A stretch of 64,000 nucleotides of DNA, taken from the NCBI GenBank assembly GCA_022826245.1, contig JAJDVG010000028.1, forward strand, positions 8,489 through 72,488, written 5' to 3'. Both the position numbers and the translations under genes were made by a program. The notes beneath the pieces are model-generated. The model ran no database searches. It saw only the letters and a program-made list of their open reading frames with translations, and had not been told where the DNA came from. The DNA comes from Gammaproteobacteria bacterium (lineage in GTDB: Bacteria > Pseudomonadota > Gammaproteobacteria > Steroidobacterales > Rariloculaceae). This document shows positions 1,435 to 21,279 of the stretch, one piece after another (positions within the stretch are counted from its first letter, which is position 1; the number at the start of each line of letters is the position of its first letter).

Positions 1435-1457
1435 CCCGCACGAAGGGGTAAAAGGGA

Positions 1458-3227
1458 ATGACCAGAAAGATGCTCGCCGCCTGCCTGCTCGCACTGAGTA
1501 CGGCAGCGCTGGCACAGCCGCCGATAGCTGCGCTCGTCACGCGGCCCGGAGAGCGTATCGAGAACGTCATCGAGACAGACGACGGCACGCTCTACTTTAC
1601 GGGCGTCTTCAACAGCGAGGTCCTGCGGCGCACACCGGACGGCGAGGTCGAAGTCTTCGTCGATTCACTCTCCTTTCCGCAGGGCATCCTGCCCTATGGG
1701 GACGGCTTCGTGATCGATTCGCAGGATCGCGAACCGGACTTTACGGCGCCCGGGGGATTCAGTTTCGCGGGGCTCGGCGCACGCTTGTCGGTCGTGGATG
1801 CCGACGGAAACGTCGTTGATACATTGACCGGGCCGGACGATGACGCCTTCTACAACGGCATGGCCTTCGTCGGACCTGATGCACTCCTGATCGCGGATCC
1901 AGGCGGCGAGCGCCTGTTGCGCGCGGATCTCTCGAACGGGGCGGTGGAGGTCTGGCTCGACTCCGACGTCATACGGGCTTCGACCGGCGACGACAGCTTC
2001 CCGAACGGCCTCAAGGTCCATGACGGGTGGGCCTACTTCAGCCGCGGGGACATTTACCGGATCGAGATCGGCGCCGACGGCAGGCCGGCCGGAACTCCGA
2101 TTCTCGCGGCGGTAACAGGCGGCACGGACGACTTCGACGTCGCGCCGGACGGCACCATTTTCGCGAGCAGCGGCAACGACATCGTGATGACCACGGTCGA
2201 TGGCGACTCGATGGTGTTCGTCGACGAAGAATGTCCATTTTGCACGGCCGCGCGCGTGTCGCGGGATGGAGCGAGCCTCTACATCACGGGCGGTGGCCTG
2301 CCCTTCCTTCCGAATCCGCCCCCGGGACACGTAAGCCGCGTATCGCTTGAGTCCGTTTGCGGTCGCGCCTGCCTTGAGGAACATCTGGATTCCTATCTGC
2401 AGGCGGTCTTCGAGAACGATCCGGCCGCAGCGATGCTCGCACCTGAGCACCGCGCAACCGAGAACGCCGTCGACTTCGGCCCTGGTGAAGGACCATGGGC
2501 GAACACGACGGGCTACGGTGATGTCCAGCGCCGTTATGCGGATCCCGAGACCGGACAGGCCGCCTACTTCGGCTACCTGCGCGAAGGCGACATGGACAAC
2601 ATCGTTTCCGTGCGCATCCGCGTCGAGGACCGCGTGGTCACCGAGGCGGAGTGGACCATCGCCCGCGACGGACAGTTCGGTCTCATCGATGCCGCCGGGC
2701 TTGCCGCGAACCCGCCTCCCCCGGAAGAGGTGCTGCCGATGGACGAACGGACATCCCGGTTCATGATGGTCGCCATCGCGAACGGCTACTTCCAGGCGCT
2801 GCAGGATCATGACGGCGAGTACATTCCGCACTTCGACACCTGCGAACGCGTCGAGAACGGCGTCAAGGTCACGCATCGTCCGCTGAGCCAGCCGCTCGGC
2901 GGCCCGCCGCCGGAACCCGTGGAGGAAGCCGATGACGAGGCGCCATCGCTTGCCGACGAGGAGATTTCCGGCGACTGCGTGGCGGGCTTCGAGATCTTCC
3001 GCGACGGGATCGCCGAAGCGACGATGCGGCGCTTCCCGCTGGTGGATGAGGTTGCGGGCGTCGTGTTTGGTGCTACGATTTTTCGCCGCCCCGAAGGGAA
3101 TACGAATCGAAGGAACCTGCTGACCGAGTACTTCTACGTTCGCGAAGGCAGACTCGCTGGCATTTGGGCGGCCATGTACTACCTCGATCCGCAAGCGCCC
3201 TGGACGTCCGGATGGGAGAACAGATAG
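1458..3227 (+). CDS. Secreted two-domain protein: SMP-30/gluconolactonase-like beta-propeller plus uncharacterised C-terminal domain
   Basis: Signal peptide; propeller motifs ENV, FPQGI, FYNGM, FPNGL, TDDF; second domain begins CGRACLEEHLDSYL. Confidence 0.7.
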   Translation: MTRKMLAACLLALSTAALAQPPIAALVTRPGERIENVIETDDGTLYFTGVFNSEVLRRTPDGEVEVFVDSLSFPQGILPYGDGFVIDSQDREPDFTAPGGFSFAGLGARLSVVDADGNVVDTLTGPDDDAFYNGMAFVGPDALLIADPGGERLLRADLSNGAVEVWLDSDVIRASTGDDSFPNGLKVHDGWAYFSRGDIYRIEIGADGRPAGTPILAAVTGGTDDFDVAPDGTIFASSGNDIVMTTVDGDSMVFVDEECPFCTAARVSRDGASLYITGGGLPFLPNPPPGHVSRVSLESVCGRACLEEHLDSYLQAVFENDPAAAMLAPEHRATENAVDFGPGEGPWANTTGYGDVQRRYADPETGQAAYFGYLREGDMDNIVSVRIRVEDRVVTEAEWTIARDGQFGLIDAAGLAANPPPPEEVLPMDERTSRFMMVAIANGYFQALQDHDGEYIPHFDTCERVENGVKVTHRPLSQPLGGPPPEPVEEADDEAPSLADEEISGDCVAGFEIFRDGIAEATMRRFPLVDEVAGVVFGATIFRRPEGNTNRRNLLTEYFYVREGRLAGIWAAMYYLDPQAPWTSGWENR

Positions 3228-3271
3228 CGAGTCTGGCATCGCCGGACAGCAGACGTGAGGAGAATAGGAAA

Positions 3272-4213
3272 ATGACCCATTTCCCACTTGGGACCAGGAT
3301 CATGGTTGGCGCATTTGCGTTGGCCCTGCTCGGCGCCTGCGCCGAAAGCGAAATGCCGCAAGCGCAGGAGGCGCAGGACACTGCGGCCGCGCCGGACATG
3401 CCGGCTGCTCCGCCGGATCTGACGGCAGTCTGGGCCGTCGAAACGCGTTACGTCCTCGAAGGCAGCGCCGCCGGCGTTCCCCTTCAGCTCCACAGCACCA
3501 ATTGGGCTCCCCTGAGCGACGGCGTGCCCGAAGAGATTCAAGCACCGACTTTCGAAGAGCAAAGGGCTGGGATTGAACAGGTGATCGCGAGCAATGTGGA
3601 CCTCTTCGCCCAACGTGCCCGAAACCGGTTCCAACCCCCATACAACGAAGCCGGACTAGCCGCGCTTGAGCAGATGCAGGCCGGTCAGACGCCGCCGCAA
3701 AACCCGTACGAGATGTGCCTGCCAAGCAACGCGACCGGGTTCGGCGGAGTGTTCTCGACCGCGCGTATGGTCCACAAGGACGACCTGATCGTGGCCATAT
3801 CCCAGGACGGAACCGTTCGGCACTTCTATCTCGACGGCCGTGACTCCTCCAACGCCCTGCCCGCCTACGAGGGGCACTCGGTTGGTGGGTTCGACCCGGA
3901 CGGTACGCTGGTCGTCGAGACCACAGCCTATCTCGGCACGACATTCAATGGTTGGCCCATGAGCAGCGAAGCCCGCCTGGTCGAAACGCTGAGTCTTTCC
4001 GAAGACGGCAACGAACTCGCGATCAAGTCGGTGTATGAGGACCCCGTCTATCTTGCTGAACCCGTTGCCCGCATGACCTACATGTTCCGCCAGCCGGCCG
4101 ACTTCGAGCTGATTTTCGACCGCTGCGTGGAAAACGTATATGGCTCACTTGTTTACGACGAAGTCGTGCCAGATTACGTCAACGAACGACGTGAACTTCC
4201 GGAAGAGGATTGA
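3272..4213 (+). CDS. Uncharacterised lipoprotein
   Basis: Lipobox LLGAC; motifs PDLTAVW, CLP, GHSVG..DGTLVVET, EDPVYL; AGGAG upstream. Confidence 0.75.
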   Translation: MTHFPLGTRIMVGAFALALLGACAESEMPQAQEAQDTAAAPDMPAAPPDLTAVWAVETRYVLEGSAAGVPLQLHSTNWAPLSDGVPEEIQAPTFEEQRAGIEQVIASNVDLFAQRARNRFQPPYNEAGLAALEQMQAGQTPPQNPYEMCLPSNATGFGGVFSTARMVHKDDLIVAISQDGTVRHFYLDGRDSSNALPAYEGHSVGGFDPDGTLVVETTAYLGTTFNGWPMSSEARLVETLSLSEDGNELAIKSVYEDPVYLAEPVARMTYMFRQPADFELIFDRCVENVYGSLVYDEVVPDYVNERRELPEED

Positions 4214-4602
4214 TCGTGAACAGAACATTTTCGGCTTTATTCCTTGCCATTTTTTGCATTTCTTCTGCGGCAATAGCCCATCATTCGACCAACCTCGGCT
4301 ACGACACTTCGATCGAGGACTTCGAAGTTACCGGCGAATTCATCGAGTTTCGCTGGATCAACCCGCATGTGCTCATGCGCATAAGGCTGACCAACGCGGC
4401 GGGCGAAGAGGAAATCTGGACCGCCGAAACCCATAGCGCCGCAGTTCTCGGTCGCTTCGGCTGGCGCCCGAACATGTTCGAACCGGGCCAGCAACTCACC
4501 GTGATCGGCAATCCGCCGCGCCGCATGGAAGACCACATCGTGCACATCCAGTACGTGGAAACCGCGGGCGGTCAACGATATTCGGTGAACCAGGCGAACT
4601 GA
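4210..4602 (+). CDS. DUF6152-like secreted protein
   Basis: Signal peptide ending AHHS, VTG..EFRWINPH motif, OB-fold-like size; overlaps the upstream stop. Confidence 0.75.
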   Translation: MIVNRTFSALFLAIFCISSAAIAHHSTNLGYDTSIEDFEVTGEFIEFRWINPHVLMRIRLTNAAGEEEIWTAETHSAAVLGRFGWRPNMFEPGQQLTVIGNPPRRMEDHIVHIQYVETAGGQRYSVNQAN

Positions 4603-4688
4603 TCCAGCGCAGGTACCCGATCTCCGCCTGGCGAGACACTTTCGGAGTCGCCGCCCAGGCGCTTGAGTTGTCAACGAGGTTTTTCTCG

Positions 4689-4721
4689 TTGACACATAAG
4701 CTGTGCGCACATATCCTGTGC
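4689..4721 (+). promoter_or_regulatory. Sigma70 promoter with overlapping palindromic operators for the TA pair
   Basis: TTGACA (4689-4694), 17-bp spacer, TATCCT (4712-4717); palindromes CACA-N5-TGTG (4693-4705) and GCACA-N5-TGTGC (4707-4721); ATG 8 nt after the -10. Confidence 0.7.
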
Positions 4722-4725
4722 AGCC

Positions 4726-4959
4726 ATGAACGTAACCTTGTCACTCAATGACCGGGTTGTCGCGGAAGCGCGGCGGATCGCTCAGGCGCGCGGTACGAGC
4801 CTCAACCAGATGATTCGCGACTACCTCCAGCAGTTGACGGGGGCAGACGACGTCGAGGCCGTGATCGCGGAGCTTTCACAGCGGTGGGCCGACGAGAACT
4901 ATCGCTCCAGCAGCACATGGACGCGCGAGGAGTTGCATGAGCGACCGGGCGTTTCTTGA
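4726..4959 (+). CDS. Ribbon-helix-helix antitoxin (DUF6364-like)
   Basis: MNVTLSL..VVAEARRIA..GTSLNQMIRDYL; C-terminal WTREELHER; overlaps the PIN gene. Confidence 0.8.
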   Translation: MNVTLSLNDRVVAEARRIAQARGTSLNQMIRDYLQQLTGADDVEAVIAELSQRWADENYRSSSTWTREELHERPGVS

Positions 4960-5368
4960 TACGAATGTTCTCGTTTACGCGCACGACGCCCGCGACCCCC
5001 TGAAGCGCGAGCAGGCGCAGCAGTTGATCCTGCGGCTGCTGCGCGAGCGACGCGGCGTAGTGTCGGTCCAGGTACTCGAGGAGTTCTTCGCGGCCGCAAC
5101 CCGCAAGCTCGAAATGCCGGGCGACGTGGCGAAGCGGCACGTCGCATCCTACGCCCGGCTTGACGTTGTCTCGCTTGCCGTCCCGGACGTGCTGGCGGCG
5201 ATCGACCTGCATCGACTGCACGGATTTTCGATCTGGGACGCCCTCATCGTGCGCGCAGCGCTGAACGGCTCGTGCGCGACCTTGTACACCGAAGACCTGC
5301 AGCATGGTCGCCAGATAGAAACGCTGCTCGTCGACAACCCGTTCGCGGCGCAAAGCACACCCTCGTAG
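4937..5368 (+). CDS. vapC: PIN-domain toxin (VapC-like)
   Basis: FLDTNVLVYA, SVQVLEEF, SIWDALIV, LYTEDL PIN motifs. Confidence 0.9.
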   Translation: MSDRAFLDTNVLVYAHDARDPLKREQAQQLILRLLRERRGVVSVQVLEEFFAAATRKLEMPGDVAKRHVASYARLDVVSLAVPDVLAAIDLHRLHGFSIWDALIVRAALNGSCATLYTEDLQHGRQIETLLVDNPFAAQSTPS

Positions 5369-5383
5369 ACGGACGTGCGTCAG

Positions 5384-5442
5384 CTACTCCACCGTCATCG
5401 ACTTCGCGAGATTCCTCGGCTGATCGATATCCGTGCCCTTGA
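5384..5442 (-). repeat. Diverged direct repeat of the glmS 3' end (att-like site)
   Basis: 52 of 59 nt identical to 13396..13454; encodes KGTDIDQPRNLAKSMTVE* versus glmS KGTDVDQPRNLAKSVTVE*. Confidence 0.9.
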
Positions 5443-5829
5443 GCTCGGTTGTGAACGTTGAGGCAGCATTGCCGCGGAAATTCCTGTCGAGAGCTCGATA
5501 TCCGTGACGCCAACCGCAAAGCGTGGCGGCGGCCCACCAGACACCTGGGGGCATCCCGGGCAGGTACTTGGCCCAAGTACGGAACTTCAACGGATCGGGT
5601 CGTAGCAGCCCGATCCGCTCTTGGACTGACCCTCCACGGTCACAGAATCAACCCCGCACATTCACGCGTCCCTGCGGCCACCGCGACGAGCGCACCTCGG
5701 ATTGGCTGACGAACACCCGCGCCGTCAGCAAGTGACGCTTGCGGGCGAGCAAATGAGCCGGTTACGCTCTTGCGCCCGCACGCCGTTGTCTGGAGAGCCA
5801 TGACAGCGACGCCAACAAGGGTGAGAACC

Positions 5830-7041
5830 ATGCATAGACATCGCTGTACCCCGGTCACCTCGTTGACGATGTGTGCCGTTGCCTTGTCCGCACTGCTGTT
5901 CGCAGGCCATTCGCGGGCGCAGTTCGCGGGCAACATCGCCCTGCCTGAGGAATTCGGCGAGGCGCAGCGGGTCACCCTGGCCGCACAGGCCTTTCTGGAC
6001 TCGCTCACCGCTGAACAACGCAACACCGCTTCGCTGCCGCTCGACAGCGAAAACCGCGGCAACTGGTCGAATCTCCCAAACGGCATCGTTCAGCGATCGG
6101 GCCTGCGCACGGGAGACCTTGGCGAGGCGCAGCGCATCGCCCTGCACCACTTGCTGCGCTCCGCGATGTCGAGCCAGGGCTATCTGAAGGTGGCGGGCGT
6201 CATTCACATGGATGAAATCCTCGGCAACACCTACGCCGACCCGCCTGAAAACCTCATGAACATCGATGTCGGCGGCTTCGGTCGAGGGCCGGTCGAACTC
6301 AGCGGCGACTCGCCCGTGATCTTCGGCGCCAACCATTACTACGTTTCGCTGTTCGGCGCACCGGCCACCGATGGGGAATGGGCATTCCTGCTGACCGGCC
6401 ATCACCTGGCCGTCAGCTTCACGGTCGCGCAGGGTCGAATTGGCTTCACGCCGCTGTTCATGGGATCTCAGCCCCTGGTGGTCCGGCGCGGCGTCGAGGC
6501 CGGCTGGTCGCCGCTCTATCACGAGAGCATCCGCGGCTTCGATCTCATGGAATCTCTGACGGCCGAGCAACAGCAAACGGCGCTCATCAGCGAAGAACGC
6601 GTCTTCGATGTCCTGACGGGGCCGGGCAGACGCGACGGAGTGTCGTCGTTCGAAGGTCTCAAGGCTTCCGACATGTCGCCCGAGCAGCAGTTGTTGCTGC
6701 GGCTGCTCGTCATGGAGTTTGTCGGCAACGCCGGCTACGAAGGCGCCCGGGCACAGCTTCAGGCGATCGATGACAGCGGTTGGGACGAACTCTGGTTCGC
6801 CTGGCGCGGACCGGTCGGCGACCCGGAAGACCTTTTCTACTACCGCGTGCACGGCGAGCGGCTGATACTGGAGCTGGCTTGGGAGGCGCGCAACCACATT
6901 CACGCCATCGTTCGCGATCCGCTCAACGACTACGGCGAAGACTGGCTCGGCATCCATTACGTCGAAAACCACCCGGACGTGACCGCGTTGATGGAAGCGT
7001 TACAGGAGCAGGTCGAGCAGGGCGAAGCGTCGGCGCCGTAG
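5830..7041 (+). CDS. DUF3500-family secreted protein
   Basis: Signal peptide; motifs WSNLP..RSGL, GHHLAV, FAWRG, YYRVHG, NHIHAIVRDPLNDYG. Start uncertain (5770-5869). Confidence 0.85.
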   Translation: MHRHRCTPVTSLTMCAVALSALLFAGHSRAQFAGNIALPEEFGEAQRVTLAAQAFLDSLTAEQRNTASLPLDSENRGNWSNLPNGIVQRSGLRTGDLGEAQRIALHHLLRSAMSSQGYLKVAGVIHMDEILGNTYADPPENLMNIDVGGFGRGPVELSGDSPVIFGANHYYVSLFGAPATDGEWAFLLTGHHLAVSFTVAQGRIGFTPLFMGSQPLVVRRGVEAGWSPLYHESIRGFDLMESLTAEQQQTALISEERVFDVLTGPGRRDGVSSFEGLKASDMSPEQQLLLRLLVMEFVGNAGYEGARAQLQAIDDSGWDELWFAWRGPVGDPEDLFYYRVHGERLILELAWEARNHIHAIVRDPLNDYGEDWLGIHYVENHPDVTALMEALQEQVEQGEASAP

Positions 7042-7194
7042 CAGGAGCGGGTCACACGGGGAGGCGTCCGCGCCGTAGCACGCGCAGTTCTATCGGGTCG
7101 CGCTGGTAGAGAATCGTCCAGGGAACTCGGCCGCCGCGTGAACTGGCAACGAGAGTTGGCTTGTACTGGGATTCAATACGTGCAGAATAGCGCC

Positions 7195-7491
7195 ATGCCG
7201 CCGATCGCTCGACACAACTGGACACTCAAGCTCGGGTTAGCCCTGTTCCTGGCCGGGCAGCTTTGCTCCGTTGCACATGCGAGCGAATTCGGCCCACTTC
7301 CCCATGAGCACGATGGCGTCGTTTGTCTTGCGATCCTGACCGATGAGCAGGAAGGGCTCGTTCCGACTGCGAATCTCACTGCGCCAACGTTCATCGCCCT
7401 GGTCTCCGCTGTACCCCAAACAGCGAGACAAGCACCGCTCAAGCGGTTGCACTCGATTCGACCTCCGTCTACAGGTCCTCCCTCGATCTAA
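7195..7491 (+). CDS. DUF2946-like leader protein, candidate metal-sensing ribosome-arrest peptide
   Basis: Hydrophobic N-terminus ending VAHA, HEHDGVVC motif, C-terminal RPPSTGPP; immediately upstream of a TonB receptor. Confidence 0.6.
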   Translation: MPPIARHNWTLKLGLALFLAGQLCSVAHASEFGPLPHEHDGVVCLAILTDEQEGLVPTANLTAPTFIALVSAVPQTARQAPLKRLHSIRPPSTGPPSI

Positions 7492-7586
7492 AACTCCTTG
7501 ATTTCCTTGCACCGTTGAGAGCGTCTGTGCGTTCGCGCGCTGCGCTGGTGTCTTTGCGTATTTCAGAAGTTCATGGATCGAGACAA

Positions 7587-9788
7587 ATGACCAGACACAC
7601 ATCCAGGCCGGCGGCGTTCGCCTTCGCTGCCGCACTCACAATTCCTTGCGCACTGCCTGTTGCAGCGCAAACAACACAGACAGCCGACGACGAGAATGTC
7701 GTGGAGGAGGTTTTCGTCGTAGGCACGCGCCGCGCGTATCGCGGAAATTTCGACGATCTCGAAAAACCAACGGCGGACCAGACCATTGACGAAGCCCTGC
7801 TGCGCGAGGTCGGGGCGATAAACCTCAATCAGGCGCTGGATTTATCGGCATCCGTTGCACGCCAGAACAACTTTGGCGGATTGTGGAACAGCTTTTCGAT
7901 TCGCGGCTTCTACGGAGACATCAATCTGCCCAGCGGATTTCTGGTTAACGGATTCAATGCAGGCCGCGGGTTCGCCGGCCCGCGGGATCTGGTCGGCATC
8001 GAGTCGGTGGAAGTGCTCAAGGGGCCGCGCTCAGCGCTGTTCGGGCGCGGTGAACCCGGCGGCACGGTCAATCTTGTGACCAAACGGCCGCAATTCGAGA
8101 CCCTGGGGGACTTCCGCGCCACCTTCGGGAGCTGGAGCCAAATGCGTTTCGAAGGGGATGTCCAAACCACGGCAGGAAGCAATGACCAGGTCGGACTGCG
8201 CATCGTGGGATTCCACGAGGATGCGGAGAGCTTCAGGGATACCGTCGAGACAGCGCGTTTTGGCCTTTATCCGTCGATCACCTGGGAAATTTCCGACGCA
8301 AGCAGTGTGACTTACGAATTGGAGTACACACAGCAGGAGATTCCCTTCGATCGCGGTGTTGCCTATTCGGAAGACTACGGTTTCACGCCGCGTGAAACTT
8401 TCGCCGGCGAGCCCGGCGACGGGCCCATCGAGACCGAGGTGCTCGGTCATCAACTCGAAGTCCAGCACAACTTCTCCGATAACTGGAGTCTGCTTGCCGG
8501 TCTTGGGTATAGAGATACGTCTTTTGAAGGCAACGCATCCGAAACAAACTTCGGCGGACGCCAGACATACTTCCTGGATGGTCGAACCCTGTCGCGATTT
8601 TTCCGTTATCGGAACTTCGAGTCGGACTATTTCGTAGCCCGAGCGGAAGTTGCGGGTGAGTTCAATTCAGGCTCGCTTCGCCACAGACTGCTCGTGGGCG
8701 CCGACTATGACCGCTTCGACCTGAGTTGGTTTATCCAGCGCTACCGGCCAAGGTGGTTTCCGGGGACGACGGATATCAATACTCTCGACCCGGCAGCATA
8801 TCTTTTTCTGGACGTGTTCAATCCGGTCTATGGCCAGTTCCCGCAACCGGTGCCCGGGCCAAACACGAACCGGGATGAGCGCCTGGATGGATTCGGCTTC
8901 TACATACAGGACCAGATCGACATCACGGATCGGTTTCAGGTTCGCCTTGGCTTGCGCTGGGATGACTTCGAGCAGGACTTGACCAACCTTCGCGCGACGC
9001 CCGCAACGACGATTACGACATCGGACGATCGAGTCTCACCGCAGCTTGGCGCGGTTTACTCGGTCAACGACGGTTTCAGCCTGTACGCTTCCTACGGCGA
9101 AGGCTTCCGCCAACAGGCAGGGTCCGACTATCAAGGCCGGCAATTCAATCCCAACCTCACCGAGTCTGCAGAGATCGGACTGAAACTGGACATGGCGCAG
9201 TTCTCCCAAGGGGTCTCCGGCTCGCTCACGTTTGCGCTATTCCAGGTCGACCAAAGCAACATTCTGGTGAACGACGATCGGCCGGAGGCCGTAGCGCTGG
9301 GGTGGTTTTCTCATGATGCAGGCGAAGCACGCAGCCGAGGGTTTGAAATTGACGCGGACCTTGCCTTCGAGAACGGCGCCAATCTGTGGTTATCCTACGC
9401 GTACGCCGACGCGGTATTCACCACGAGCAATCTCGAAGCCGACTGGGGCGTGCTCATTGAAGCCGGCGACCCACTCATCAACTCGCCGGAACACCAGGCG
9501 AATGTGCAATTCAGCCAGAGTTTCGAGCTGGGAGGCATGCCGGCGCAGGTCGGCGCGGGCGTTCAATATACCGGCGATCGGCTCGGGTTTACCGCTTTTG
9601 ACTTCTACTTGCCCAGCTATACCACCGCACGCTTGTTTGGCCAGATTCGGCCCAGCGAGCGCTTCATAATTCGCCTTGACATGGACAACGCATTTGACGA
9701 GGTGTACTACACGAATTCGTATGCGGACGTCTGGGTCGAACCGGGCGCGCCGCGCCGTTACCGCCTCACGGCGTCCTATTCGTTCTAG
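7587..9788 (+). CDS. TonB-dependent siderophore/metal receptor
   Basis: Signal peptide, TonB box EEVFVVG, plug FSIRGF..VEVLKGPRSALFGRGEPGGTVN, C-terminal Phe (ASYSF). Confidence 0.92.
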   Translation: MTRHTSRPAAFAFAAALTIPCALPVAAQTTQTADDENVVEEVFVVGTRRAYRGNFDDLEKPTADQTIDEALLREVGAINLNQALDLSASVARQNNFGGLWNSFSIRGFYGDINLPSGFLVNGFNAGRGFAGPRDLVGIESVEVLKGPRSALFGRGEPGGTVNLVTKRPQFETLGDFRATFGSWSQMRFEGDVQTTAGSNDQVGLRIVGFHEDAESFRDTVETARFGLYPSITWEISDASSVTYELEYTQQEIPFDRGVAYSEDYGFTPRETFAGEPGDGPIETEVLGHQLEVQHNFSDNWSLLAGLGYRDTSFEGNASETNFGGRQTYFLDGRTLSRFFRYRNFESDYFVARAEVAGEFNSGSLRHRLLVGADYDRFDLSWFIQRYRPRWFPGTTDINTLDPAAYLFLDVFNPVYGQFPQPVPGPNTNRDERLDGFGFYIQDQIDITDRFQVRLGLRWDDFEQDLTNLRATPATTITTSDDRVSPQLGAVYSVNDGFSLYASYGEGFRQQAGSDYQGRQFNPNLTESAEIGLKLDMAQFSQGVSGSLTFALFQVDQSNILVNDDRPEAVALGWFSHDAGEARSRGFEIDADLAFENGANLWLSYAYADAVFTTSNLEADWGVLIEAGDPLINSPEHQANVQFSQSFELGGMPAQVGAGVQYTGDRLGFTAFDFYLPSYTTARLFGQIRPSERFIIRLDMDNAFDEVYYTNSYADVWVEPGAPRRYRLTASYSF

Positions 9789-9923
9789 CCGCCCTGAGTT
9801 GAGTCCATTCGCGAACTTTCGCGTCCTGCAAGCATCGTGAGAAGCGCAACAAGCCGTGGCTGAGTTACTTCTGAATGCCGATGCCGGCAGACACGCGAGA
9901 CCACCCTTGACTCGGGAGTTCAA

Positions 9924-10646
9924 ATGATGCCCGTACTATCCGCTCAGGCGCTCAGCGTCGTACGCTCCGGCCAGGAAGTGCTGAAGGACGTCTCCTTCAG
10001 CATCGCGCAAGGCGAAGTTCATGCCTTGCTGGGGGGCAATGGCGCCGGCAAGTCAACGACCTTGCTTACCTTTCTCGGATTCCTCCAGCCGGCTTCGGGA
10101 AGTGTGCATGTGCAGGGCCGCGACGTGAACGAGAATCTGAGCGCGGCCCGGCAGGCCATCGCCTTCCTGCCCGAGGCGGCCACCCTGTATGGGCACTTGT
10201 CGGCCTATGAAAATCTCCGCTATTTCCTTTCGCTGGCGGGGACGGACACCGGCCGGGACGAACTCGATGCCGCCCTGGACCGTGTAGCCTTGCAGCCCGA
10301 AGCCCGGGACATGCGGATGCAAACCTACTCCAAGGGCATGCGTCAAAAGGTGGCGATCGCCCTGGCCATCCTGCGGGATACGCCTATCCTGCTGTTGGAC
10401 GAGCCGACATCGGGTCTCGATCCCGTGGCGATCGACGAGTTCAATCGGCTGGCCCGGGATCTGGCCGAGGCCGGCCGGACCATTCTCCTGGTCACTCACG
10501 ATGTCTACGGCGCCTGCCACGTGGCGGACCGCATCGACCTGTTACAGAAAGGCGTACTCGTCGGCGCCTTCGACCGACCACCCGGTATGGACCGAATCGA
10601 CACCGAGGCAGTGCATGCCGCCTTCGCCAGGCAAGCGGGAGCATGA
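9924..10646 (+). CDS. ABC transporter ATP-binding protein
   Basis: Walker A GGNGAGKST, signature YSKGMRQ, Walker B LLLDEP, H-loop VTHD. Confidence 0.95.
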   Translation: MMPVLSAQALSVVRSGQEVLKDVSFSIAQGEVHALLGGNGAGKSTTLLTFLGFLQPASGSVHVQGRDVNENLSAARQAIAFLPEAATLYGHLSAYENLRYFLSLAGTDTGRDELDAALDRVALQPEARDMRMQTYSKGMRQKVAIALAILRDTPILLLDEPTSGLDPVAIDEFNRLARDLAEAGRTILLVTHDVYGACHVADRIDLLQKGVLVGAFDRPPGMDRIDTEAVHAAFARQAGA

Positions 10647-12085
10647 CCATGAACAGAATATTCGCGATAGCACGAGAAGAGTCGCGGCTGTGGCTGAGAT
10701 CACGGCTGGCGCTTTACACGTTTCTGATCTTTGCCGCGTTGCTGACGGCCACCAGCATCGCCACCTCACTCAGGATGAGCGAGGAATATCGGGAACGCTC
10801 CGAACAGCAGGCACTGGCGGAAGAAACTTTTCTGTCCCAGCCGGATCGCCATCCACACAGAATGGTGCACTACGGGCATTACGTTTTTCGCACGCCCCCG
10901 CCGCTCGCGACGATCGATCCCGGTGTCGACGCGGTCACCGGGCAATCGATATTTCTGGAAGGCCACCGGCAAAACACGGCGATGTTCGCCGATGCCAGGG
11001 CGAGCGCCGACCTCGGCGGCTTCGAGGGGCTGACCGCGGCCCTGGTGTATCAATTGTTCGCGCCCCTGCTGCTGATCGCCCTCGGCCATGGCCTGATCAT
11101 TCGCGAGCGCGAAGAGAACACGCTGGCGCCGTTGCTGGCCCAGGGCGTGACGGGAAGTGAATTGTACGCGGGCAAATGGTTTGCCCTGGCGGGAGTTGCG
11201 CTGGCGCTGCTGTTGCCGCTGGCCGTCGTGTCGGGGGCGGCTGTCGCCGGAGGCGGGTCGCTGCCGGCAAGCGCGGGAATCATCGGCCTCTATGCGCTCT
11301 ATCTGCTTGTCTGGTGCGGTCTGATCCTGCTGGTATCGGCCCTGGTCCGGTCGCGCGCGCTTTCCCTCGGCGTTCTGGCGCTGTTCTGGCTCGGCGCCGC
11401 CCTGATCGTCCCGCGCATCGCCGTCGAATCCGCCAGCACGATCATGCCCATTCCGGGGAAGCTGGAGACCGACCTGCGCATGCAGGAAGAACTGCGCGTA
11501 GTCGGCGATGGCCACTACGCTGGCGCGCCGCAATATCTGCAGCTTCAGGCAAATCTTCTGGCGCAATACGATGTCGAACGTGTGGAAGACCTGCCGGTCA
11601 ATTTCCGCGGCGTCGTCGCGGAGGTTGCCGAAGCCGATCTGGCGGAAGTGATGAACAGATATGCCGAGGAGCGCATGGCGCTCGAAGCGCGTCAGGCCCG
11701 GTTCGCCGAGTACTTCGGCTGGCTTTCGCCGGTCGTTGCGGTTTCGGCGGGCTCCCGCGCGCTGGCGGGAACCGACCTCGCGACTCACCATCGATTTCTG
11801 CGCGAAGCCGAGGAAGTGCGCTTCGATTTCGTGCAGGGCATTAATCGTGTCCATGTCGAGCAACTCGCCTATAGCGTTGACATGAATCGCGGCATCGATG
11901 CCGAATCCGAACGGCGTGCCCGCACGTCGGCCGAAAACTGGAACGTGCTCGATGAATTTTCCTTCCGGCCCGCCGCGGCCGGCGAACGCCTGACTCGCGC
12001 CGGCGCGGCCCTGGCCATGCTTTTCGCCTGGTTCGCGTTGCTGACGGCCGGCGGCGTCCACGCCGCGCGCAAGATGCAGCCATGA
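10643..12085 (+). CDS. ABC-2-type permease, DUF3526 family
   Basis: Multiple TM segments, PDRHPHRMVHYGHY motif, REREENTL motif; ATGA coupling. Confidence 0.85.
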   Translation: MTMNRIFAIAREESRLWLRSRLALYTFLIFAALLTATSIATSLRMSEEYRERSEQQALAEETFLSQPDRHPHRMVHYGHYVFRTPPPLATIDPGVDAVTGQSIFLEGHRQNTAMFADARASADLGGFEGLTAALVYQLFAPLLLIALGHGLIIREREENTLAPLLAQGVTGSELYAGKWFALAGVALALLLPLAVVSGAAVAGGGSLPASAGIIGLYALYLLVWCGLILLVSALVRSRALSLGVLALFWLGAALIVPRIAVESASTIMPIPGKLETDLRMQEELRVVGDGHYAGAPQYLQLQANLLAQYDVERVEDLPVNFRGVVAEVAEADLAEVMNRYAEERMALEARQARFAEYFGWLSPVVAVSAGSRALAGTDLATHHRFLREAEEVRFDFVQGINRVHVEQLAYSVDMNRGIDAESERRARTSAENWNVLDEFSFRPAAAGERLTRAGAALAMLFAWFALLTAGGVHAARKMQP

Positions 12086-13332
12086 CCGGGCTGATCCGGG
12101 AAATCCGCTTTCTTTCGAGTGACCGGGCGGCCTTGCTATGGCTCGGTATCGCGGTGCTCGTCGCTGCCCTGTCGGTGGTTTTGGGGCTGCGCGAAATCGC
12201 CTCGCAGCGCACGGTCCTGAACGAATTGATCGAAATCGATCGCGTCGAACGGGAAGTGGTGACGGGACTGTACCGGGACTGGGGCAATGCGGCCTATTAC
12301 ACTTTCCACCTGACCTACGATTCGCCGTCGGATTTCGCAGTCGCCGCACTCGGCCAACGCGATACCTCTCCCTGGAAGCACAATATCCGCGCACTCGCAG
12401 TGGAAGGGCAGATTTACGAGACTGACGCGGAAAATCCCGACTTTGCCCTGATCGGCCGTTTCGACTTCGCGTTCGCCGCGAATCTGCTCGCCCCGCTATT
12501 GCTGATTCTGTTGTTGCACGATCTGCGCTCCTCCGAGCGCACCGCAGGTCGCTATGAATTGCTCAGCGCGACAGCGGCAGTCCACGGCAGCCCCTGGTTC
12601 GCGCGGGCGGTCTTGCGGGTTGGAGCACTGATGCTCTGCCTGATCGTTCCACTCTGGGCCGGCGGTTTGCTTGCCGGAACGGGCGTTTCGGACATGGCGC
12701 TTGCAAGCCTGATCGTGGCCTTGCACATCGGATTCTGGTGGGGAGTTTGCGCAATTGTCGATCGTGTCGCCTGGAGCAGCCCTGTCAACCTGACCGTGCT
12801 GATCGGCGCCTGGCTGGCCCTCGCCGTAATCGTCCCGGCGGCTGTCAAGCTCTCGGTGGATGCCGCCGTACCGTTGCCGGATGGAGGCGACATCCTCCTT
12901 ACCCAAAGAGAGGCGGTCAACGACGCCTGGGATCTGCCCAAGTCCGCGACGATGGAGCCGTTTATAGAGCGCCATCCCGAATGGGCGGATTACACGGAAG
13001 TCAGTCAGCCTTTCGAATGGAAGTGGTATTACGCTTTCCAGCAGGTCGGCGACCAGACCGTCGAGCCACTGTCACTGGCTTATCGGGAAGGCCGTATCCG
13101 ACGCGACCGCCTTGCGGGAATGTACGCCTGGCTATCTCCGCCCGCGCTCGCCGAACGAGCCCTGCAAGCTATCGCAGGTACGAATCTGGCGGCCTCGCTG
13201 GCCTATGAACAACAGGTGCGCGACTTTCACGCCGCTCTCAGGACCTACTACTATCCCAGGCTGTTTCGCGACGAGGCTTTTTCCGATGCGAGCATCGGGC
13301 AGCGGCCTGAATTCCGCGCGGCGGGTAAATGA
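12082..13332 (+). CDS. ABC-2-type permease, DUF3526 family
   Basis: DWGNAAYYTFHLT, QREAVNDAWDLPK, FEWKWYYAFQQVGD motifs; ATGA coupling. Confidence 0.85.
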   Translation: MTGLIREIRFLSSDRAALLWLGIAVLVAALSVVLGLREIASQRTVLNELIEIDRVEREVVTGLYRDWGNAAYYTFHLTYDSPSDFAVAALGQRDTSPWKHNIRALAVEGQIYETDAENPDFALIGRFDFAFAANLLAPLLLILLLHDLRSSERTAGRYELLSATAAVHGSPWFARAVLRVGALMLCLIVPLWAGGLLAGTGVSDMALASLIVALHIGFWWGVCAIVDRVAWSSPVNLTVLIGAWLALAVIVPAAVKLSVDAAVPLPDGGDILLTQREAVNDAWDLPKSATMEPFIERHPEWADYTEVSQPFEWKWYYAFQQVGDQTVEPLSLAYREGRIRRDRLAGMYAWLSPPALAERALQAIAGTNLAASLAYEQQVRDFHAALRTYYYPRLFRDEAFSDASIGQRPEFRAAGK

Positions 13333-13360
13333 TCCGCCGTCTTCGGCGAGGCGTTTCGCC
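13331..13360 (-). repeat. 30-bp double-hairpin dispersed repeat, copy 1
   Basis: Minus strand GGCGAAACGCCTCGCCGAAGACGGCGGATC; 28/30 identical to copy 2. Confidence 0.85.
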
Positions 13361-13368
13361 TAATCGCC

Positions 13369-13396
13369 CGGCGGGATTCGTGGAATCCAGCCCGCC
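13369..13396. terminator. Imperfect GC-rich hairpin after the glmS stop
   Basis: GGCGGGATTC-GTG-GAATCCAGCCCGCC between convergent genes; no U-tract. Confidence 0.4.
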
Positions 13397-15228
13397 TACT
13401 CCACCGTTACGGACTTCGCGAGGTTCCTCGGCTGATCGACGTCCGTCCCCTTGACCACTCCCACGTGGTAGGCCAGTAGCTGCAAGGGCACCGTGTAGAC
13501 GATCGGCGCGATCAGGCGGTCCGCGTAGGGCATCTCGATGACCGTAACGCCGGGTTCGCGCTCGAGCCCCGAATCGCGGCCGGCGAAGACGTAGAGCTGG
13601 CCGCCTCGGGCGTGCACGACTTTCATGTTGGACTTGAGCTTGTCGAGCAGCTCGTTGTTCGGCGCGACGACGACGACCGGCATTTCCTCGTCGACGAGCG
13701 CGAGCGGGCCGTGCTTGAGTTCTCCTGCCGCGTAGGCCTCAGCGTGAATGTAGGAGATCTCCTTGAGCTTGAGCGCGCCTTCCATGGCGACCGGCCACAT
13801 CGGGCCGCGGCCGAGAAACAGCGCGTGCTGCTTCTCGGCGAAACTCTCGGCGAGATCCTCGAGCTTGCCGTTCATGGCGAGCGCCTTTTCGACCGCTCCC
13901 GCGGCGCGATAGAGATGCGTCACGAGTTCCGCCTCGCGCTCTTCGGGCATGCCGCGCTGGCGCGCGAGCATGAGCGTGACGAGCAATAGCGAGATGAGCT
14001 GGGTCGTGAAGGCCTTCGTGCTCGCAACGCCGATTTCCGGGCCCGCCTGAGTCATCATGACGAGATCGGACTTGCGCACCATCGAGCTTTGCGGGCTGTT
14101 GCAGATCGTGAGCACGCCGATGTAGTCGGCCTGCCGCGCCATGCGCAGAGCCTCGAGGGTGTCGGCCGTCTCGCCCGACTGCGAAATCGCGACGAACAGC
14201 GTGCCCTCGGAGACGACGATATCCCGGTAGCGGTATTCGCTCGCGATCTCGACCTGGCAGGGCAACCCCGCCAGCGATTCGATCCAGTACTTGGCCACGC
14301 GGCCCGCATGATAGGCCGTACCGCAGGCGACGATGTGCAGATTGCGGACCTGTTCGAACAGCTCCACCGCGCGCGGACCGAGCGAGTCTGTCACCACGCG
14401 GTCGTCGGCGACGCGTCCGTACAGCGTGTCGGCGATCGCACGCGGCTGCTCGAAGATCTCCTTGAGCATGTAATGGCGGTAGGGTTCCTTGTCGACGGAA
14501 TCGGAACTCCATTGGGATTCGTGGACGGGCCGCTCGACCGCCTCGCCGGCGGAATCGAAGATGCGCACGGCATCGCGCCCGATTTCCGCAAGATCGCCCT
14601 GCTCCAGGTGGATGAAACGCCGCGTCACGGGCAGCAGCGCCGGCACTCCGCTGGCAATGAAGTTCTCGCCGAGGCCGAGGCCGATCACTAGCGGGCTTGC
14701 GATGCGGGTCGCGACGATGCGGTCGGGGTTCTCGGCGTCGATGACGGCGAGCGCGTAGGCGCCGACGAAACGCTTCGCCGCCAGGCGCACGGCCTCGAGC
14801 AGGTCGTGTCCCTGCTCGAGGTGTTCGCGGATCAGGTGGGCCGCGACCTCGGTGTCGGTCTCGGAACTGAATTCGTAGCCGAGCGAGACGAGCTCCTGCC
14901 GGATTTCCTCGTGGTTCTCGATGATGCCGTTGTGGATGACGGCCACCCGTCCGCCGGACAGGTGGGGGTGCGCATTGGCTTCGGTGACGCCGCCGTGGGT
15001 TGCCCAACGGGTGTGGGCGACACCGAGGCGGCCCCCGAGCGGCGCCCGGTCGAGCTTCTCGTCGAGCGCCGCGATCTTGCCGACCGCGCGCCGCAGATCA
15101 AGATCGTTCTTGCCGGCGGCGACCGCAATGCCGGCCGAGTCGTAGCCGCGGTATTCGAGCCGCCGCAATCCTTCGACGAGTATCGGAACGACGTTACGTT
15201 CCGCTATGGCGCCGACTATCCCGCACAT
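13396..15228 (-). CDS. glmS: Glutamine--fructose-6-phosphate aminotransferase
   Basis: MCGIVG N-terminal nucleophile, AHTRWATHG, C-terminal DQPRNLAKSVTVE. Confidence 0.99.
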   Translation of the reverse strand: MCGIVGAIAERNVVPILVEGLRRLEYRGYDSAGIAVAAGKNDLDLRRAVGKIAALDEKLDRAPLGGRLGVAHTRWATHGGVTEANAHPHLSGGRVAVIHNGIIENHEEIRQELVSLGYEFSSETDTEVAAHLIREHLEQGHDLLEAVRLAAKRFVGAYALAVIDAENPDRIVATRIASPLVIGLGLGENFIASGVPALLPVTRRFIHLEQGDLAEIGRDAVRIFDSAGEAVERPVHESQWSSDSVDKEPYRHYMLKEIFEQPRAIADTLYGRVADDRVVTDSLGPRAVELFEQVRNLHIVACGTAYHAGRVAKYWIESLAGLPCQVEIASEYRYRDIVVSEGTLFVAISQSGETADTLEALRMARQADYIGVLTICNSPQSSMVRKSDLVMMTQAGPEIGVASTKAFTTQLISLLLVTLMLARQRGMPEEREAELVTHLYRAAGAVEKALAMNGKLEDLAESFAEKQHALFLGRGPMWPVAMEGALKLKEISYIHAEAYAAGELKHGPLALVDEEMPVVVVAPNNELLDKLKSNMKVVHARGGQLYVFAGRDSGLEREPGVTVIEMPYADRLIAPIVYTVPLQLLAYHVGVVKGTDVDQPRNLAKSVTVE

Positions 15229-15348
15229 CGCCTGTCAGTCCTCTCGATACGTCCCGCTCAAGGCACGCCGTTCAGGGCTTGAGCGTTCAACCTTGAACGC
15301 CATGGTCTGAACGTTCCGCATCTCTCGCTCGATCTCCCCGCGCCGAGC

Positions 15349-16725
15349 TTACCGCGGCTTCCTCGCGGGCCTCTGCCAGCCGCGGACCTCCGCCTGCCGG
15401 GACCGCGCCACCGTAAGCTTGTCCGGCGGGGCGTCCTTGCTGATCGTCGAGCCCGCGCCGATCGTTGCGCCCGCGCCGACCTCGACCGGGGCGATGAGCA
15501 TGACGCCGGAACCGATGAACGCGCCGTCGCCGATCGTCGTGCGGTGCTTCGCCGCGCCGTCGTAGTTGCAGGTGATCGTGCCCGCGCCGATGTTGACGTC
15601 CCGACCGACCGAGGCGTCGCCGACGTAGCTCAAGTGGCTGATCTTCGTGCCGCTGCCGATCCGGCTGTTCTTCACCTCGACGAAGTTGCCGACCTTGACG
15701 CGCTCGGCGAGCTCCGTGCCGGGTCTCAGACGCGCGAACGGGCCGAGTTCGCAGGCGGCTCCGGCCGTCACGCCGTCCATGACCGTGTTCGGGTGAACGA
15801 CCGTGTCCGGGCCGAGCCGGCTGGCGCGGATCGTGCAGTTCGGGCCGATGCGCACACCGCGCGCGAGGCTGACCTCGCCCTCGAACACCGCGCCGACATC
15901 GATGAAGACGTCGCCCTCGACGGTGAGCTCGCCGCGCACATCGACGCGGGCGGGATCGGCGAGCGTGGCGCCGGCCTCCATGAGTTCGCGAGCGCGCGCC
16001 CGCTGGTAACCGCGCTCCGCTTCGGCGAGCTGTGACTTGTCGTTGATGCCGAGTACCTCGTCCGGATCGTCCACCTCGACCGCCGCGACACGGGCGCCTT
16101 CGGCGACCGCCGGCGCGACGACATCCGGCAGATAGTACTCCCCTTGCGCGTTGTCGTTGCTCAAACCGGCGATCCAGCGGCGCAGGTCGCGGGCGCTCGC
16201 GACCATGACACCGGCATTGGTTTCGCGGATGCGGCGTTCCTCTTCCGTCGCGTCGGCATGCTCGACGATGCCCGAAACGCCGCCGTCGGCAGCCCGCAGG
16301 ATGCGCCCGTAACCGGCCGGATCAGGCAGCGTTGCGGTCAGCAGTACGAGGTCTGCGGATTCCGCCTTTTCCGCCGTGTCACAGAGCCTGCGCAGCGTCT
16401 CGGCGCCGATCAGCGGCACGTCGCCGAAGAGCACGAGCACACGATGCTCGTCGGGTATCCCGGGCAGAGCCTGGGCGACCGCATGCGCCGTGCCGTGCTG
16501 CTCGGCCTGCAGGCGCCAGCCGAGATCCTCGTCCGGGAAGGCTTCGCGCACTTCCTCCGCGCCATGCCCGTGGACGATCCGGACAGCCGCCGGCTCAAGC
16601 TCCCGCGCGCTGTCGAGCACATGCGCAAGGAGCGGGCGGCCGGCGAGCGGATGCAGGACCTTGGGCAGGTCCGAGCCCATGCGCTTGCCCTGGCCCGCGG
16701 CCAGGATGACGACGGTAACCGGCAC
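15349..16725 (-). CDS. glmU: Bifunctional UDP-GlcNAc pyrophosphorylase/acetyltransferase
   Basis: VVILAAGQGKRM..PKVLH, hexapeptide repeats, GTITCNYDG; GTG start inferred. Confidence 0.98.
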   Translation of the reverse strand: MPVTVVILAAGQGKRMGSDLPKVLHPLAGRPLLAHVLDSARELEPAAVRIVHGHGAEEVREAFPDEDLGWRLQAEQHGTAHAVAQALPGIPDEHRVLVLFGDVPLIGAETLRRLCDTAEKAESADLVLLTATLPDPAGYGRILRAADGGVSGIVEHADATEEERRIRETNAGVMVASARDLRRWIAGLSNDNAQGEYYLPDVVAPAVAEGARVAAVEVDDPDEVLGINDKSQLAEAERGYQRARARELMEAGATLADPARVDVRGELTVEGDVFIDVGAVFEGEVSLARGVRIGPNCTIRASRLGPDTVVHPNTVMDGVTAGAACELGPFARLRPGTELAERVKVGNFVEVKNSRIGSGTKISHLSYVGDASVGRDVNIGAGTITCNYDGAAKHRTTIGDGAFIGSGVMLIAPVEVGAGATIGAGSTISKDAPPDKLTVARSRQAEVRGWQRPARKPR

Positions 16726-16896
16726 GTTCGGGGTCCCTCGACTGAAACGGCCAACGATGATACTTGCTGCGCGGCCCGCGGACCCGCCGACGTGAACGCC
16801 CGCGTGAGGGACAGCGCGTGGCGCCGCGGCCGGTGAGGCGCCGGGCGCTGCCCGGGAGCCCGGGCCGCAGGAATTCACGGCTGCAGATTCGCTGTG

Positions 16897-16926
16897 GGCG
16901 AAACGCCTGGCCGAAGACGGCCGATC
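16897..16926 (+). repeat. 30-bp double-hairpin dispersed repeat, copy 2
   Basis: GGCGAAACGCCTGGCCGAAGACGGCCGATC in the atpC-glmU spacer. Confidence 0.85.
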
Positions 16927-16949
16927 GCGACTTCCAGCGGCGCAGGCTT

Positions 16950-17366
16950 CTACCGACGCTTGCCCTTGAGCTTCTGCGCCGCGCGGTAGCGCGCCTCGGC
17001 CTCGACGAGTTCGGCCTGAGCCTGCGCGAGATCGATCTCGTCGCTGCGCCCGGCAAGCACTTCCCGCGCTTGCTCGCGCGCCGCGAGCGCCGCCTCTTCG
17101 TCGAGTTCGTCGCCGCGCAGGGCGCTGTCGGCAAGCACCGTCACGAGATACGGTTGCACCTCGAGCACGCCGCCGGTGATATAGAAGAACTGCTCCTCGC
17201 CGTCGCTCGTCTCGACGCGTACTTCGCCCGGCTTGAGTTCGGTCAGGAGCGGTGCGTGCCGCGGCGCGATGCCGAGCTCGCCGAGCTTGCCGGGAGCGAA
17301 TACCCAGTTGGCTTCGCCCGAAAAGATGTCGCCTTCGGCGCTGACGATGTCGACCTGGATGGGCAT
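16950..17366 (-). CDS. atpC: ATP synthase epsilon subunit
   Basis: VDIVSAEG, GELGIAPRHAPLLT; operon position. Confidence 0.97.
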   Translation of the reverse strand: MPIQVDIVSAEGDIFSGEANWVFAPGKLGELGIAPRHAPLLTELKPGEVRVETSDGEEQFFYITGGVLEVQPYLVTVLADSALRGDELDEEAALAAREQAREVLAGRSDEIDLAQAQAELVEAEARYRAAQKLKGKRR

Positions 17367-17434
17367 CGCGTGGCTATCCCCTGGATTGCTTCGTCGTACT
17401 CGCCTGACCGTACTTCATGAGAGCCCGCGCACCG

Positions 17435-19694
<2,260 letters not shown>

Positions 19695-19734: not shown

Positions 19735-21279
<1,545 letters not shown>

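Follow-up and report, generated by a model that had tools for sequence, protein, structure and literature searches.

A second, diverged glmS 3' end as a possible scar of recombination between two versions of the glmS-downstream region in an uncultured sponge symbiont

Why should the last codons of glmS occur a second time, some 8 kb downstream of an intact glmS gene and with accessory DNA in between? The question is raised by a stretch of DNA from an uncultured gammaproteobacterium, here called G000 (positions 8489-72488 of contig C44, JAJDVG010000028.1). This stretch of 64,000 nucleotides (65.5% G+C) is referred to as the window, and all coordinates are window positions. The assembly is of metagenome type, comprising 3.6 Mb in 62 contigs with 96.5% completeness, and the sequencing runs that contain the stretch, from eight studies, are mostly sponge metagenomes. 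In this study the locus was compared with those of three other species of the same genus (the congeners G001, G002 and G003; L038 is the G001 locus and L039 a second congener locus used in alignments) and of two members of another genus in the same family (G089 and G015). An unpublished genome, G038, was counted only in the tallies of the glmS alignment, of a 68-nucleotide glmS probe scan and of an atpD control. We propose, with confidence that is evenly balanced, that the orphan tail is the mark left by recombination, at the place where two alleles were brought into tandem by one homologous and one illegitimate joint with DNA of a relative.

The minus strand carries, in this order, the atp operon, glmU (15349-16878) and glmS (13396-15228). 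The glmS product of 610 amino acids contains a GATase and two SIS domains (Pfam), aligns with its relatives over residues 1-610, and shares 89-93% full-length amino acid identity with the proteins of the three congeners. Its final 59 nucleotides (13396-13454, copy A) recur on the same strand at 5384-5442 (copy B), where the last 19 codons and the stop stand alone. The two form ungapped direct repeats identical at 52 of 59 positions, and copy B matches the glmS end of G001 at 50 of 59. The repeat noted in the original prediction is thus present, and it has only two copies in the genome: a search of the whole assembly with a 121-nucleotide probe found the gene end (E 5.2e-58) and the orphan (E 5.4e-15), the next match having an E value of 0.1. 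The distribution of the differences also stands as first described, the seven being spread over codon positions 1, 2 and 3 as 2/0/5, with two replacements (V>I and V>M) and neither stops nor indels. Taking G000 alone, this coding-like pattern is suggestive: the excess at third positions (at least five of seven, with one third expected) has a P of 0.045, and comparison with a neutral-decay model gives p 0.21. When relatives are included in the comparison, the match between the orphan and glmS extends about 1-5 bases further upstream, the functional copy carries a unique Leu>Val codon change precisely at the repeat boundary, and the orphan retains the consensus base. The break therefore lies about 59-65 nucleotides inside the glmS coding sequence. 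An AGG codon common to both tails was considered as a sign that they are sisters, and was rejected as G003 and G004 carry AGG too.

Such a tail could arise trivially, either from chimeric metagenome assembly of two strains or as the deletion remnant of a full second glmS. The 62-contig metagenome-type assembly and the higher depth of the cassette region between the repeats (2-4 times) would agree with the former. The latter finds parallels in G044 (L187/L188) and G386 (L197/L198), which possess a second, divergent full-length glmS with 45-57% amino acid identity to the query, and in G046 (L190) and G052 (L192), where only 3' fragments of the divergent paralogue type remain. However, run X2, assembled independently in another study, yielded a single contig of 8,049 nucleotides that covers window positions 1-7769 and has the same joints (119 differences, 6 gaps), and hence the orphan tail and both its flanks are confirmed and are not an assembly artefact. 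Moreover, the short filler next to the orphan (5443-5608) has no sequence in common with the two alleles by which an assembler might have been led astray. As for a relic, the orphan agrees with the divergent paralogue type in 44 of 59 positions, no better than the functional end does (45 of 59), and it is followed by flanking DNA of the native type. By these comparisons the orphan is assigned to the main glmS type and is not the relic of a divergent second glmS, a possibility that the first analysis had named as fatal to its own view. We regard an artefact or a relic as extremely unlikely.

The congeners show what the locus looks like without the additional DNA. In G001 and G003, the homologue of window positions 5336-5383 comes straight after glmS, with DUF6152 next, and VapBC, the cassette and a second tail are all missing (the G003 contig stops 185 nucleotides after glmS). 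Empty sites in relatives, which the original prediction had suggested looking for, thus exist; the same arrangement is also expected if the block that carries the orphan came from a relative resembling G001 or G003. The G001 locus continues with p349, part of p589, DUF3500, Fic, a spacer and TBDRa, a gene for a TonB-dependent receptor, and in G002 a HepT gene, an AddAB-like pair, DUF3500 and Fic lie downstream of glmS, such that the genes between glmS and DUF3500 differ in each of G000, G001 and G002. DUF3500 and TBDRa are therefore backbone of the genus, and what changes from one species to the next, by replacement, is the DNA that separates glmS from DUF3500. Among 84 genomes of the family, DUF3500 proteins with more than 75% amino acid identity were found only in G000, G001 and G002, always downstream of glmS, and the other genera of the family have a different conserved gene set 3' of glmS.

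Against this background, the G000 locus resolves into two units. Unit D runs from 13454 down to 5609 and comprises the glmS tail, a repeat resembling repetitive extragenic palindromes (REP), a siderophore-receptor/ABC cassette, an intact DUF3500 gene and a piece of the spacer. Unit R, from 5442 down to 742, comprises the orphan glmS tail, the native-type flank, the VapBC pair, DUF6152, p349, p589, a decayed DUF3500 gene and another piece of the spacer. Two diverged versions of the segment from glmS tail to spacer thus stand head to tail, with a single novel joint at 5443-5608. The flank of the orphan (5336-5383, minus strand) is the DNA found immediately 3' of the glmS stop in G001 and G003 in the alignments to L038 and L039, and window positions 2949-4637 share 85.4% nucleotide identity with the DNA immediately 3' of G001 glmS, the encoded proteins being 70-82% identical. 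At the far ends of the units lies a second repeat pair, 742-770 and 5609-5637, with 20 of 26 positions identical (the comparison covers 5609-5634), each member being a homologue of the same stretch of the G001 spacer (L038 5342-5370). The spacer piece of unit D is the longer one (5609-5731, 77.6% identical to L038 5370-5248). Between the repeats, the intact DUF3500 gene of unit D (5770-7041, plus strand; Pfam DUF3500, E 8.7e-79) is 83.4% identical in nucleotides and 82.7% in amino acids to the glmS-linked DUF3500 of G001. Its counterpart in unit R is a pseudogene (833-1434, plus strand), recognized from the repeat families D1 and D2, from alignment and from matches containing a stop, which has lost about its first 185 codons and carries an in-frame TGA and a 117-nucleotide deletion. 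Both ends of unit R are therefore truncated genes, 59 nucleotides of glmS at one end and the 3' two-thirds of DUF3500 at the other. Identity between the copies is 88% for the glmS tail, 80% for DUF3500 (over 597 nucleotides) and 77% for the spacer.

An anatomy that is exactly tandem, with one novel joint, would be expected from duplication in place in an ancestor, followed by long divergence, differential loss and gain of the cassette, G001 and G003 having collapsed to one copy; that the copies differ to the same order as the species do is also compatible with this history. The divergence of the two DUF3500 copies allows it to be examined. At third codon positions, the pseudogene is 34.7% different from the intact copy, 38.2% from G001 and 37.2% from G002 (597 columns in common), and at second positions only 9.0-11.1% different from the three intact genes. 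For comparison, the intact copy differs at third positions by 28.0% from G001 and 34.8% from G002, with corresponding glmS values of 28.1% and 30.8%. The split between the DUF3500 copies thus appears to be at least as deep as the split from G002. A simple two-phase estimate places it at about 1.3 times the G000-G001 split and has selection acting on the dead copy during about 87% of the time since. Of 33 informative sites in DUF3500, 20 join the intact copy with G001, 9 join the two G000 copies and 4 favour the third topology, so the affinity of the intact copy is to G001 rather than to the decayed copy beside it. Because the DUF3500 split is at least as old as the G002 split and the dead copy was mostly under selection, duplication in place requires that two functional copies persisted in tandem through two speciations and then vanished in all other lineages. 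Furthermore, when the differences of the orphan tail were pooled with those of two further orphan tails, from genomes G190 and G341 (described below), their distribution over codon positions, 6/1/25, rejects neutral decay (chi-square 16.3, p 3e-4; p 0.21 for G000 alone). Taken together, the sequences fit two alleles that would have worked in separate lineages and been united late, and they are a poor fit to duplication in place, which we consider distinctly unlikely.

The reading we favour, a recombination scar, is the most economical and would account for the late union in the following way. The cassette would first have reached one of the two versions by horizontal transfer. Linear chromosomal DNA carrying the other version would then have been taken up from a congeneric relative, and one of its ends would have been incorporated by a homologous crossover in conserved flanking DNA, either glmS/glmU or TBDRa, the other end by an illegitimate join, a process known as homology-facilitated illegitimate recombination. 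With one end joined by homology and the other illegitimately, the resident version would have been kept instead of replaced, and the redundant DUF3500 copy would have decayed afterwards. That a single event of this kind formed the tandem is our inference, and two features of the locus agree with such a process. One junction is seamless, glmS reading through, and the only unmatched DNA is 5443-5608, in keeping with one homologous and one non-homologous junction. In addition, DUF3500 and a spacer piece of the genus locus are found in both units, as expected of DNA added from the homologous locus of a relative. Which unit arrived second can be argued both ways: the orthologue-like DUF3500 of unit D and the truncated genes at the ends of unit R suggest unit R as the incomer, and the gene order that unit R shares with G001 and G003 points to unit D. 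The final sequence would be identical if the 4.8-kb block carrying the orphan (771-5608) were the incomer, in which case nothing would have integrated "into glmS". Homologues of ComEC and DprA are encoded in G000; they are also present in 10 and 11, respectively, of 14 control genomes, and thus do not discriminate for competence. Entry of a circular intermediate by homologous recombination was considered as well and is unlikely, since the circle would carry only 59 nucleotides of glmS at 88% identity.

Processes of this kind have precedents. In natural-transformation experiments with Acinetobacter, Streptococcus pneumoniae and Pseudomonas stutzeri, joints reportedly show a few bases of microhomology and recipient DNA is usually deleted. 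The present locus resembles the products of such experiments in its one homologous anchor and one non-homologous joint, with foreign DNA placed beside a conserved gene and no dedicated recombinase, and differs from them in that recipient DNA was retained and that duplications of 59 and about 28 nucleotides are found. A parallel is also offered by the orphaned 3' regions at rhs, contact-dependent inhibition (CDI) and type VI secretion system (T6SS) effector-immunity loci, for which homology-facilitated illegitimate recombination has been proposed as the cause (Kirchberger et al. 2017, PMC5361080). There, an incoming allele joins through a conserved part of the gene region, displacing the former 3' end together with the downstream genes, which persist as orphans; no integrase takes part, and arrays build up by repetition. 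Two differences stand out: glmS is a housekeeping enzyme with a conserved tail and not a polymorphic toxin with a variable one, and a 166-nucleotide filler and a duplicated neighbour gene, DUF3500, are present here. Since the tail is that of a conserved housekeeping gene, there is no obvious selective reason for keeping the old one. What we describe is most likely a scar of a known kind at a housekeeping gene.

The interval bracketed by the glmS repeats (7,953 nucleotides, 5443-13395) was originally taken for an element integrated into the glmS 3' end, and this view can be upheld in part only. The repeat, the restored gene and the empty site in relatives all agree with it. By its sequence relationships, however, the interval is composite and does not constitute one foreign unit: only 7168-13318 is foreign, and the distal portion, 5609-7041, is an allele of the genus backbone. 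The second repeat pair and the decayed DUF3500 also speak against it. The foreign part corresponds to a five-gene cassette (7138-13332, all genes on the plus strand, identified with Pfam), consisting of p117 (7138-7491), a TonB-dependent siderophore receptor (7515-9788; NCBIfam TIGR01783, 270.7 bits for a cut-off of 223.5), an ABC ATPase (9924-10646) and two DUF3526 ABC-2 permeases (10643-12085 and 12082-13332). Window positions 7168-13318 are 90.3% identical in nucleotides to G089 of the other genus, whose glmS product is only 58% identical in amino acids (G015). At more than 84% amino acid identity DUF3526b occurs in 5 of 83 other genomes of the family, all belonging to the genus of G089. 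Cassette genes were found at 56 loci elsewhere (L064-L119), with 44-93% amino acid identity and in most cases the same gene order, and on none of the genome contigs concerned does a glmS or DUF3500 match covering 40% or more of the query lie within 10 kb of the locus. Between the cassette and glmS lies the REP-like repeat (13336-13360, minus strand; inverted repeat I1), a dispersed element specific to the genus, with 25-30-nucleotide copies numbering 17 in G000, 8 in G001, 16 in G003, 4 weak ones in G002 and none in G089. As this repeat is genus-specific, the cassette lies in DNA of this genus. The locus thus documents how an uncultured sponge symbiont holds a siderophore-receptor/ABC cassette that is 90% identical to that of another genus, and does so while keeping two alternative versions of the glmS-downstream region side by side.

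Would a site-specific recombinase explain the locus equally well? In that case 5443-13395 together with its own glmS tail would be a degenerate or satellite island, moved by a recombinase acting in trans or since lost, the 59-nucleotide copies being its attachment sites attL and attR and the filler an att arm. Direct repeats do lie on both sides of the interval, the gene is completed by one of them, and the site is empty in two congeners. The filler is also structured, with three short palindromes or hairpins in its 166 nucleotides and a fold z-score of -3.1. Furthermore, five tyrosine-recombinase genes (PF00589) are present in the genome, all on other contigs; two of the genome's tyrosine-recombinase genes are adjacent to each other (G000:C51:16338-18015) and may belong to a multi-recombinase element. 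For additive flexible islands at tRNA genes, cassettes that lack an integrase and lie between repeated gene ends have been described (PMC10872708). Further points in favour are the islands or tails of G190 and G341 described below.

These observations have to be set against the lack of any recombinase gene or remnant inside the interval. As initially reported, no integrase or Tn7 gene lies there: Pfam searches of long open reading frames, and of short ones in the non-coding stretches, detected no integrase, transposase, serine-recombinase, Tn7 or TniQ family in 5443-13395. The whole G000 genome gave no match to PF07508 and none to TniQ (PF06527), leaving no actor for the second potential TnsD site that the orphan had been thought to create. 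The integrase-bearing versions anticipated in relatives did not appear either. No integrase and no mobile-element family was found in 45 open reading frames within 9 kb downstream of glmS in eight genomes of the family, nor any integrase in the open reading frames scanned in G001 and G002 and around the orphans and glmS of G046, G052 and G341, so that no intact integrase stands beside glmS in the relatives inspected. Site-specific integration would also leave the orthologue-level divergence of the distal 1.6 kb of backbone (5609-7041) unaccounted for, and would turn the second repeat pair and the decayed DUF3500 into coincidences. Nor do the orphan tails known so far, of 59, about 96 and 123 nucleotides, point to a common crossover point. 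We therefore consider site-specific integration unlikely, though it is the main rival of the scar. In terms of known systems, the locus is like the integrase-mediated islands and prophages that enter a gene at its 3' end and restore it, with tRNA, tmRNA and protein genes as targets (additive flexible islands with repeated tRNA ends, PMC10872708), in the direct repeats around accessory DNA, the intact gene and the empty site in relatives, and unlike them in having no integrase, in that part of the island is backbone, and in the second repeat pair outside the supposed element.

Similar considerations apply to Tn7. In the literature on glmS we found insertion of the Tn7 type only, and no description of insertion inside the 3' coding end. 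Tn7 itself goes in beyond the glmS stop, with a duplication of 5 bp. At the present locus, unlike Tn7, the break is about 59 nucleotides inside the coding sequence, 59 nucleotides are duplicated, and the genome has no Tns or TniQ genes. What is shared with Tn7 and Tn7-like elements at attTn7 (PMC11014353) is the conserved glmS end as a landmark with accessory DNA accumulating downstream. Repeats of a gene end around accessory DNA are usually read as the att signature of an integrase, and here they may come from plain recombination between diverged alleles. Since such recombination can yield the same repeats, island calling from repeats alone would misclassify this locus.

The orphan tails in other genomes came from the scan for orphan glmS 3' ends that had been recommended. 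When a 68-nucleotide probe of the glmS end was applied to 400 genomes of the order, 189 gave a match and 11 of them gave two; three of these 11 (G000, G190 and G341) carry orphan glmS tails, those of G190 and G341 being synonymously diverged. In G190, which belongs to another family (L186, G190:C93 4896-12889), the orphan lies 6.1 kb downstream of glmS on the same strand, with 77 of 95 nucleotides and 31 of 31 amino acids identical. The 6.1-kb island in between has a lower G+C content, and its genes include those for an extracytoplasmic function (ECF) sigma factor, DUF3106 and DUF3619. An open frame of 142 codons that starts inside the glmS end contains a fragment of a Recombinase domain (PF07508, E 4.8e-5), and this fragment abuts the glmS stop; against its weight for site-specific integration, a search of 70 other genomes of the G190 family gave no homologue of it. 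The G341 orphan is 123 nucleotides long (116 of 123 nucleotides and 41 of 41 amino acids identical) and lies on a separate 2.9-kb contig beside GNAT and hydrolase genes (L195/L196), and the intact glmS of that genome ends 535 nucleotides from the start of another contig, which implies that the island between them is unassembled. Among the remaining double matches, apart from the four genomes with paralogues or their fragments mentioned above, that of G308 was rejected as a contig-end overlap and that of G332 as a match of 35 nucleotides with no protein-level match, and in G316 and G406 the second match begins at a contig end (orphan or overlap).

As a control, an atpD 3'-end probe of similar length was applied to 400 genomes drawn likewise, of which 160 matched and 8 matched twice. 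The five second matches that were retrieved are 20-33 nucleotides long, internal and short of the stop; those of G004, G040 and G167 (53, 33 and 33 nucleotides) are known from the table only. The numbers of orphans, 0 for atpD and 3 for glmS, are statistically indistinguishable, and atpD is not operon-terminal, hence no specificity for glmS is claimed. A broader idea, that the glmS end serves as a dedicated landing pad for integrase-less cargo blocks, each bringing a glmS tail of its own and mobilized in trans by a novel recombinase that reads the conserved sequence recognized by TnsD, is put forward as a long shot. If it were true, nutrient-uptake cassettes, here with a siderophore receptor and ABC genes, would spread among co-resident sponge symbionts, and G000, G190 and G341 would be footprints of this traffic.

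Several observations weigh against the recombination scar that we favour. In the parallel case of G190 a serine-recombinase fragment abuts glmS, and hence there are insertions at the glmS tail within the order that a recombinase has driven. At the illegitimate joint there is no microhomology; instead there is the 166-nucleotide filler, which has no detectable source. Illegitimate-recombination experiments are said to give typically microhomology joints, unlike such a filler. The deletion breakpoint of unit R (equivalent to L038 5342) is no more than 28 nucleotides away from the point where unit D ends (L038 5370 in equivalent terms), and as two independent events would rarely fall so close together, a hotspot, a more complex single event or a site-specific step is hinted at. 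Ancestry signals within unit R conflict, since at third positions DUF6152 and p349 differ from G001 by 19-22% and its DUF3500 by 38%, glmS itself differing by 28%. Identity of glmS to G001 and G003 in sliding windows is flat (81-93%) and shows no mosaic step. Haplotypes of this species with a single unit, or of the donor type, did not turn up, and the event is therefore rebuilt from one genome. Finally, the junction between cassette and glmS (13333-13395) is unbridged among the pieces listed, the contigs of runs X2 and X12 both beginning at 13339.

Further searches for traces of the event concerned the donor, the empty site and the filler. A scan of metagenome contigs with DUF3500 for a donor-type locus gave six loci, all with at most 61% identity. 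Of 115 joints, none of the 15 listed skips 5443-13395 as an excision or empty-site joint would (contigs from four runs; contigs drop rare forms). The filler had no match in the window, the rest of G000, G001-G003 or G089, and is unlike the native spacer and the TBDRa N-terminus (at both DNA and protein level) and unlike the 62 nucleotides at 771-832. Its 17-nucleotide palindrome has no other copy in four genomes. In Rfam, window positions 1-20000 gave no match at E values up to 0.1. A single-base variant of the REP-like repeat was considered as an ancestry marker and set aside as too weak, the glmS-side copy having the G001/G003-type base and six of seven exact G000 copies the other.

The two tails and the two spacer pieces could instead be products of several unrelated events at a hotspot, with no single event forming the tandem. 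The region is different in every congener, ancestry signals are mosaic, and small additional events did occur. One is the VapBC toxin-antitoxin pair (VapB 4726-4959, VapC 4937-5368, plus strand; RHH/DUF6364 and PIN domains), a separate small insertion whose block (4638-5335) is missing between both homologous flanks in G001 and G003, with a similar motif of about 7 nucleotides at each edge; the pair had rightly been suspected to be a further accretion. Another is an orphan 24-nucleotide copy of the DUF3500 3' end with its stop (7055-7080, plus strand), recognized in the tandem 37-nucleotide family D3 and by comparison with the G001 gene end. Independent hotspot events, however, need to be more numerous than in the tandem model, and they do not explain that the two repeat pairs have the same order and orientation; we judge them very unlikely as the whole explanation.

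Some features of the locus may be noted in their own right. The diverged 24-nucleotide DUF3500 end sits 13 nucleotides past the true stop within a 37-nucleotide tandem repeat (7018-7091), and may be a small second orphan-tail signature at the other border of the cassette or simple slippage. The VapBC insertion lies about 52 nucleotides past the orphan stop, and the 3' end of VapC reads into the former glmS-downstream flank. Unit R further contains p589 (1458-3227), p349 (3164-4213) and DUF6152 (4210-4602), all on the plus strand, of which only DUF6152 has a Pfam match. The p589 gene is complete in G000 only; G001 retains its last 127 codons (L038 1512-1973), abutting the DUF3500 stop, which represents another indel. 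Beyond the variable region, the 5' part of TBDRa (3-677, minus strand), with a Plug domain, belongs to the conserved backbone and is divergently oriented; the gene extends past the window edge and is 89.2% identical to G001 over 2,143 nucleotides. On the other side, the REP-like repeat has an inverted partner upstream of glmU (16897-16926), and the two inverted copies (13331-13360 and 16897-16926) flank glmU-glmS. The summed depth of the cassette is 2-4 times that of its flanks in four metagenome runs, because co-resident organisms carry it. The cassette is found at 85-94% nucleotide identity in several genomes of another genus (L057, L061-L063), and it occurs in many gammaproteobacterial metagenome-assembled genomes as well as in two records labelled Vicinamibacterales (78-80% amino acid identity).

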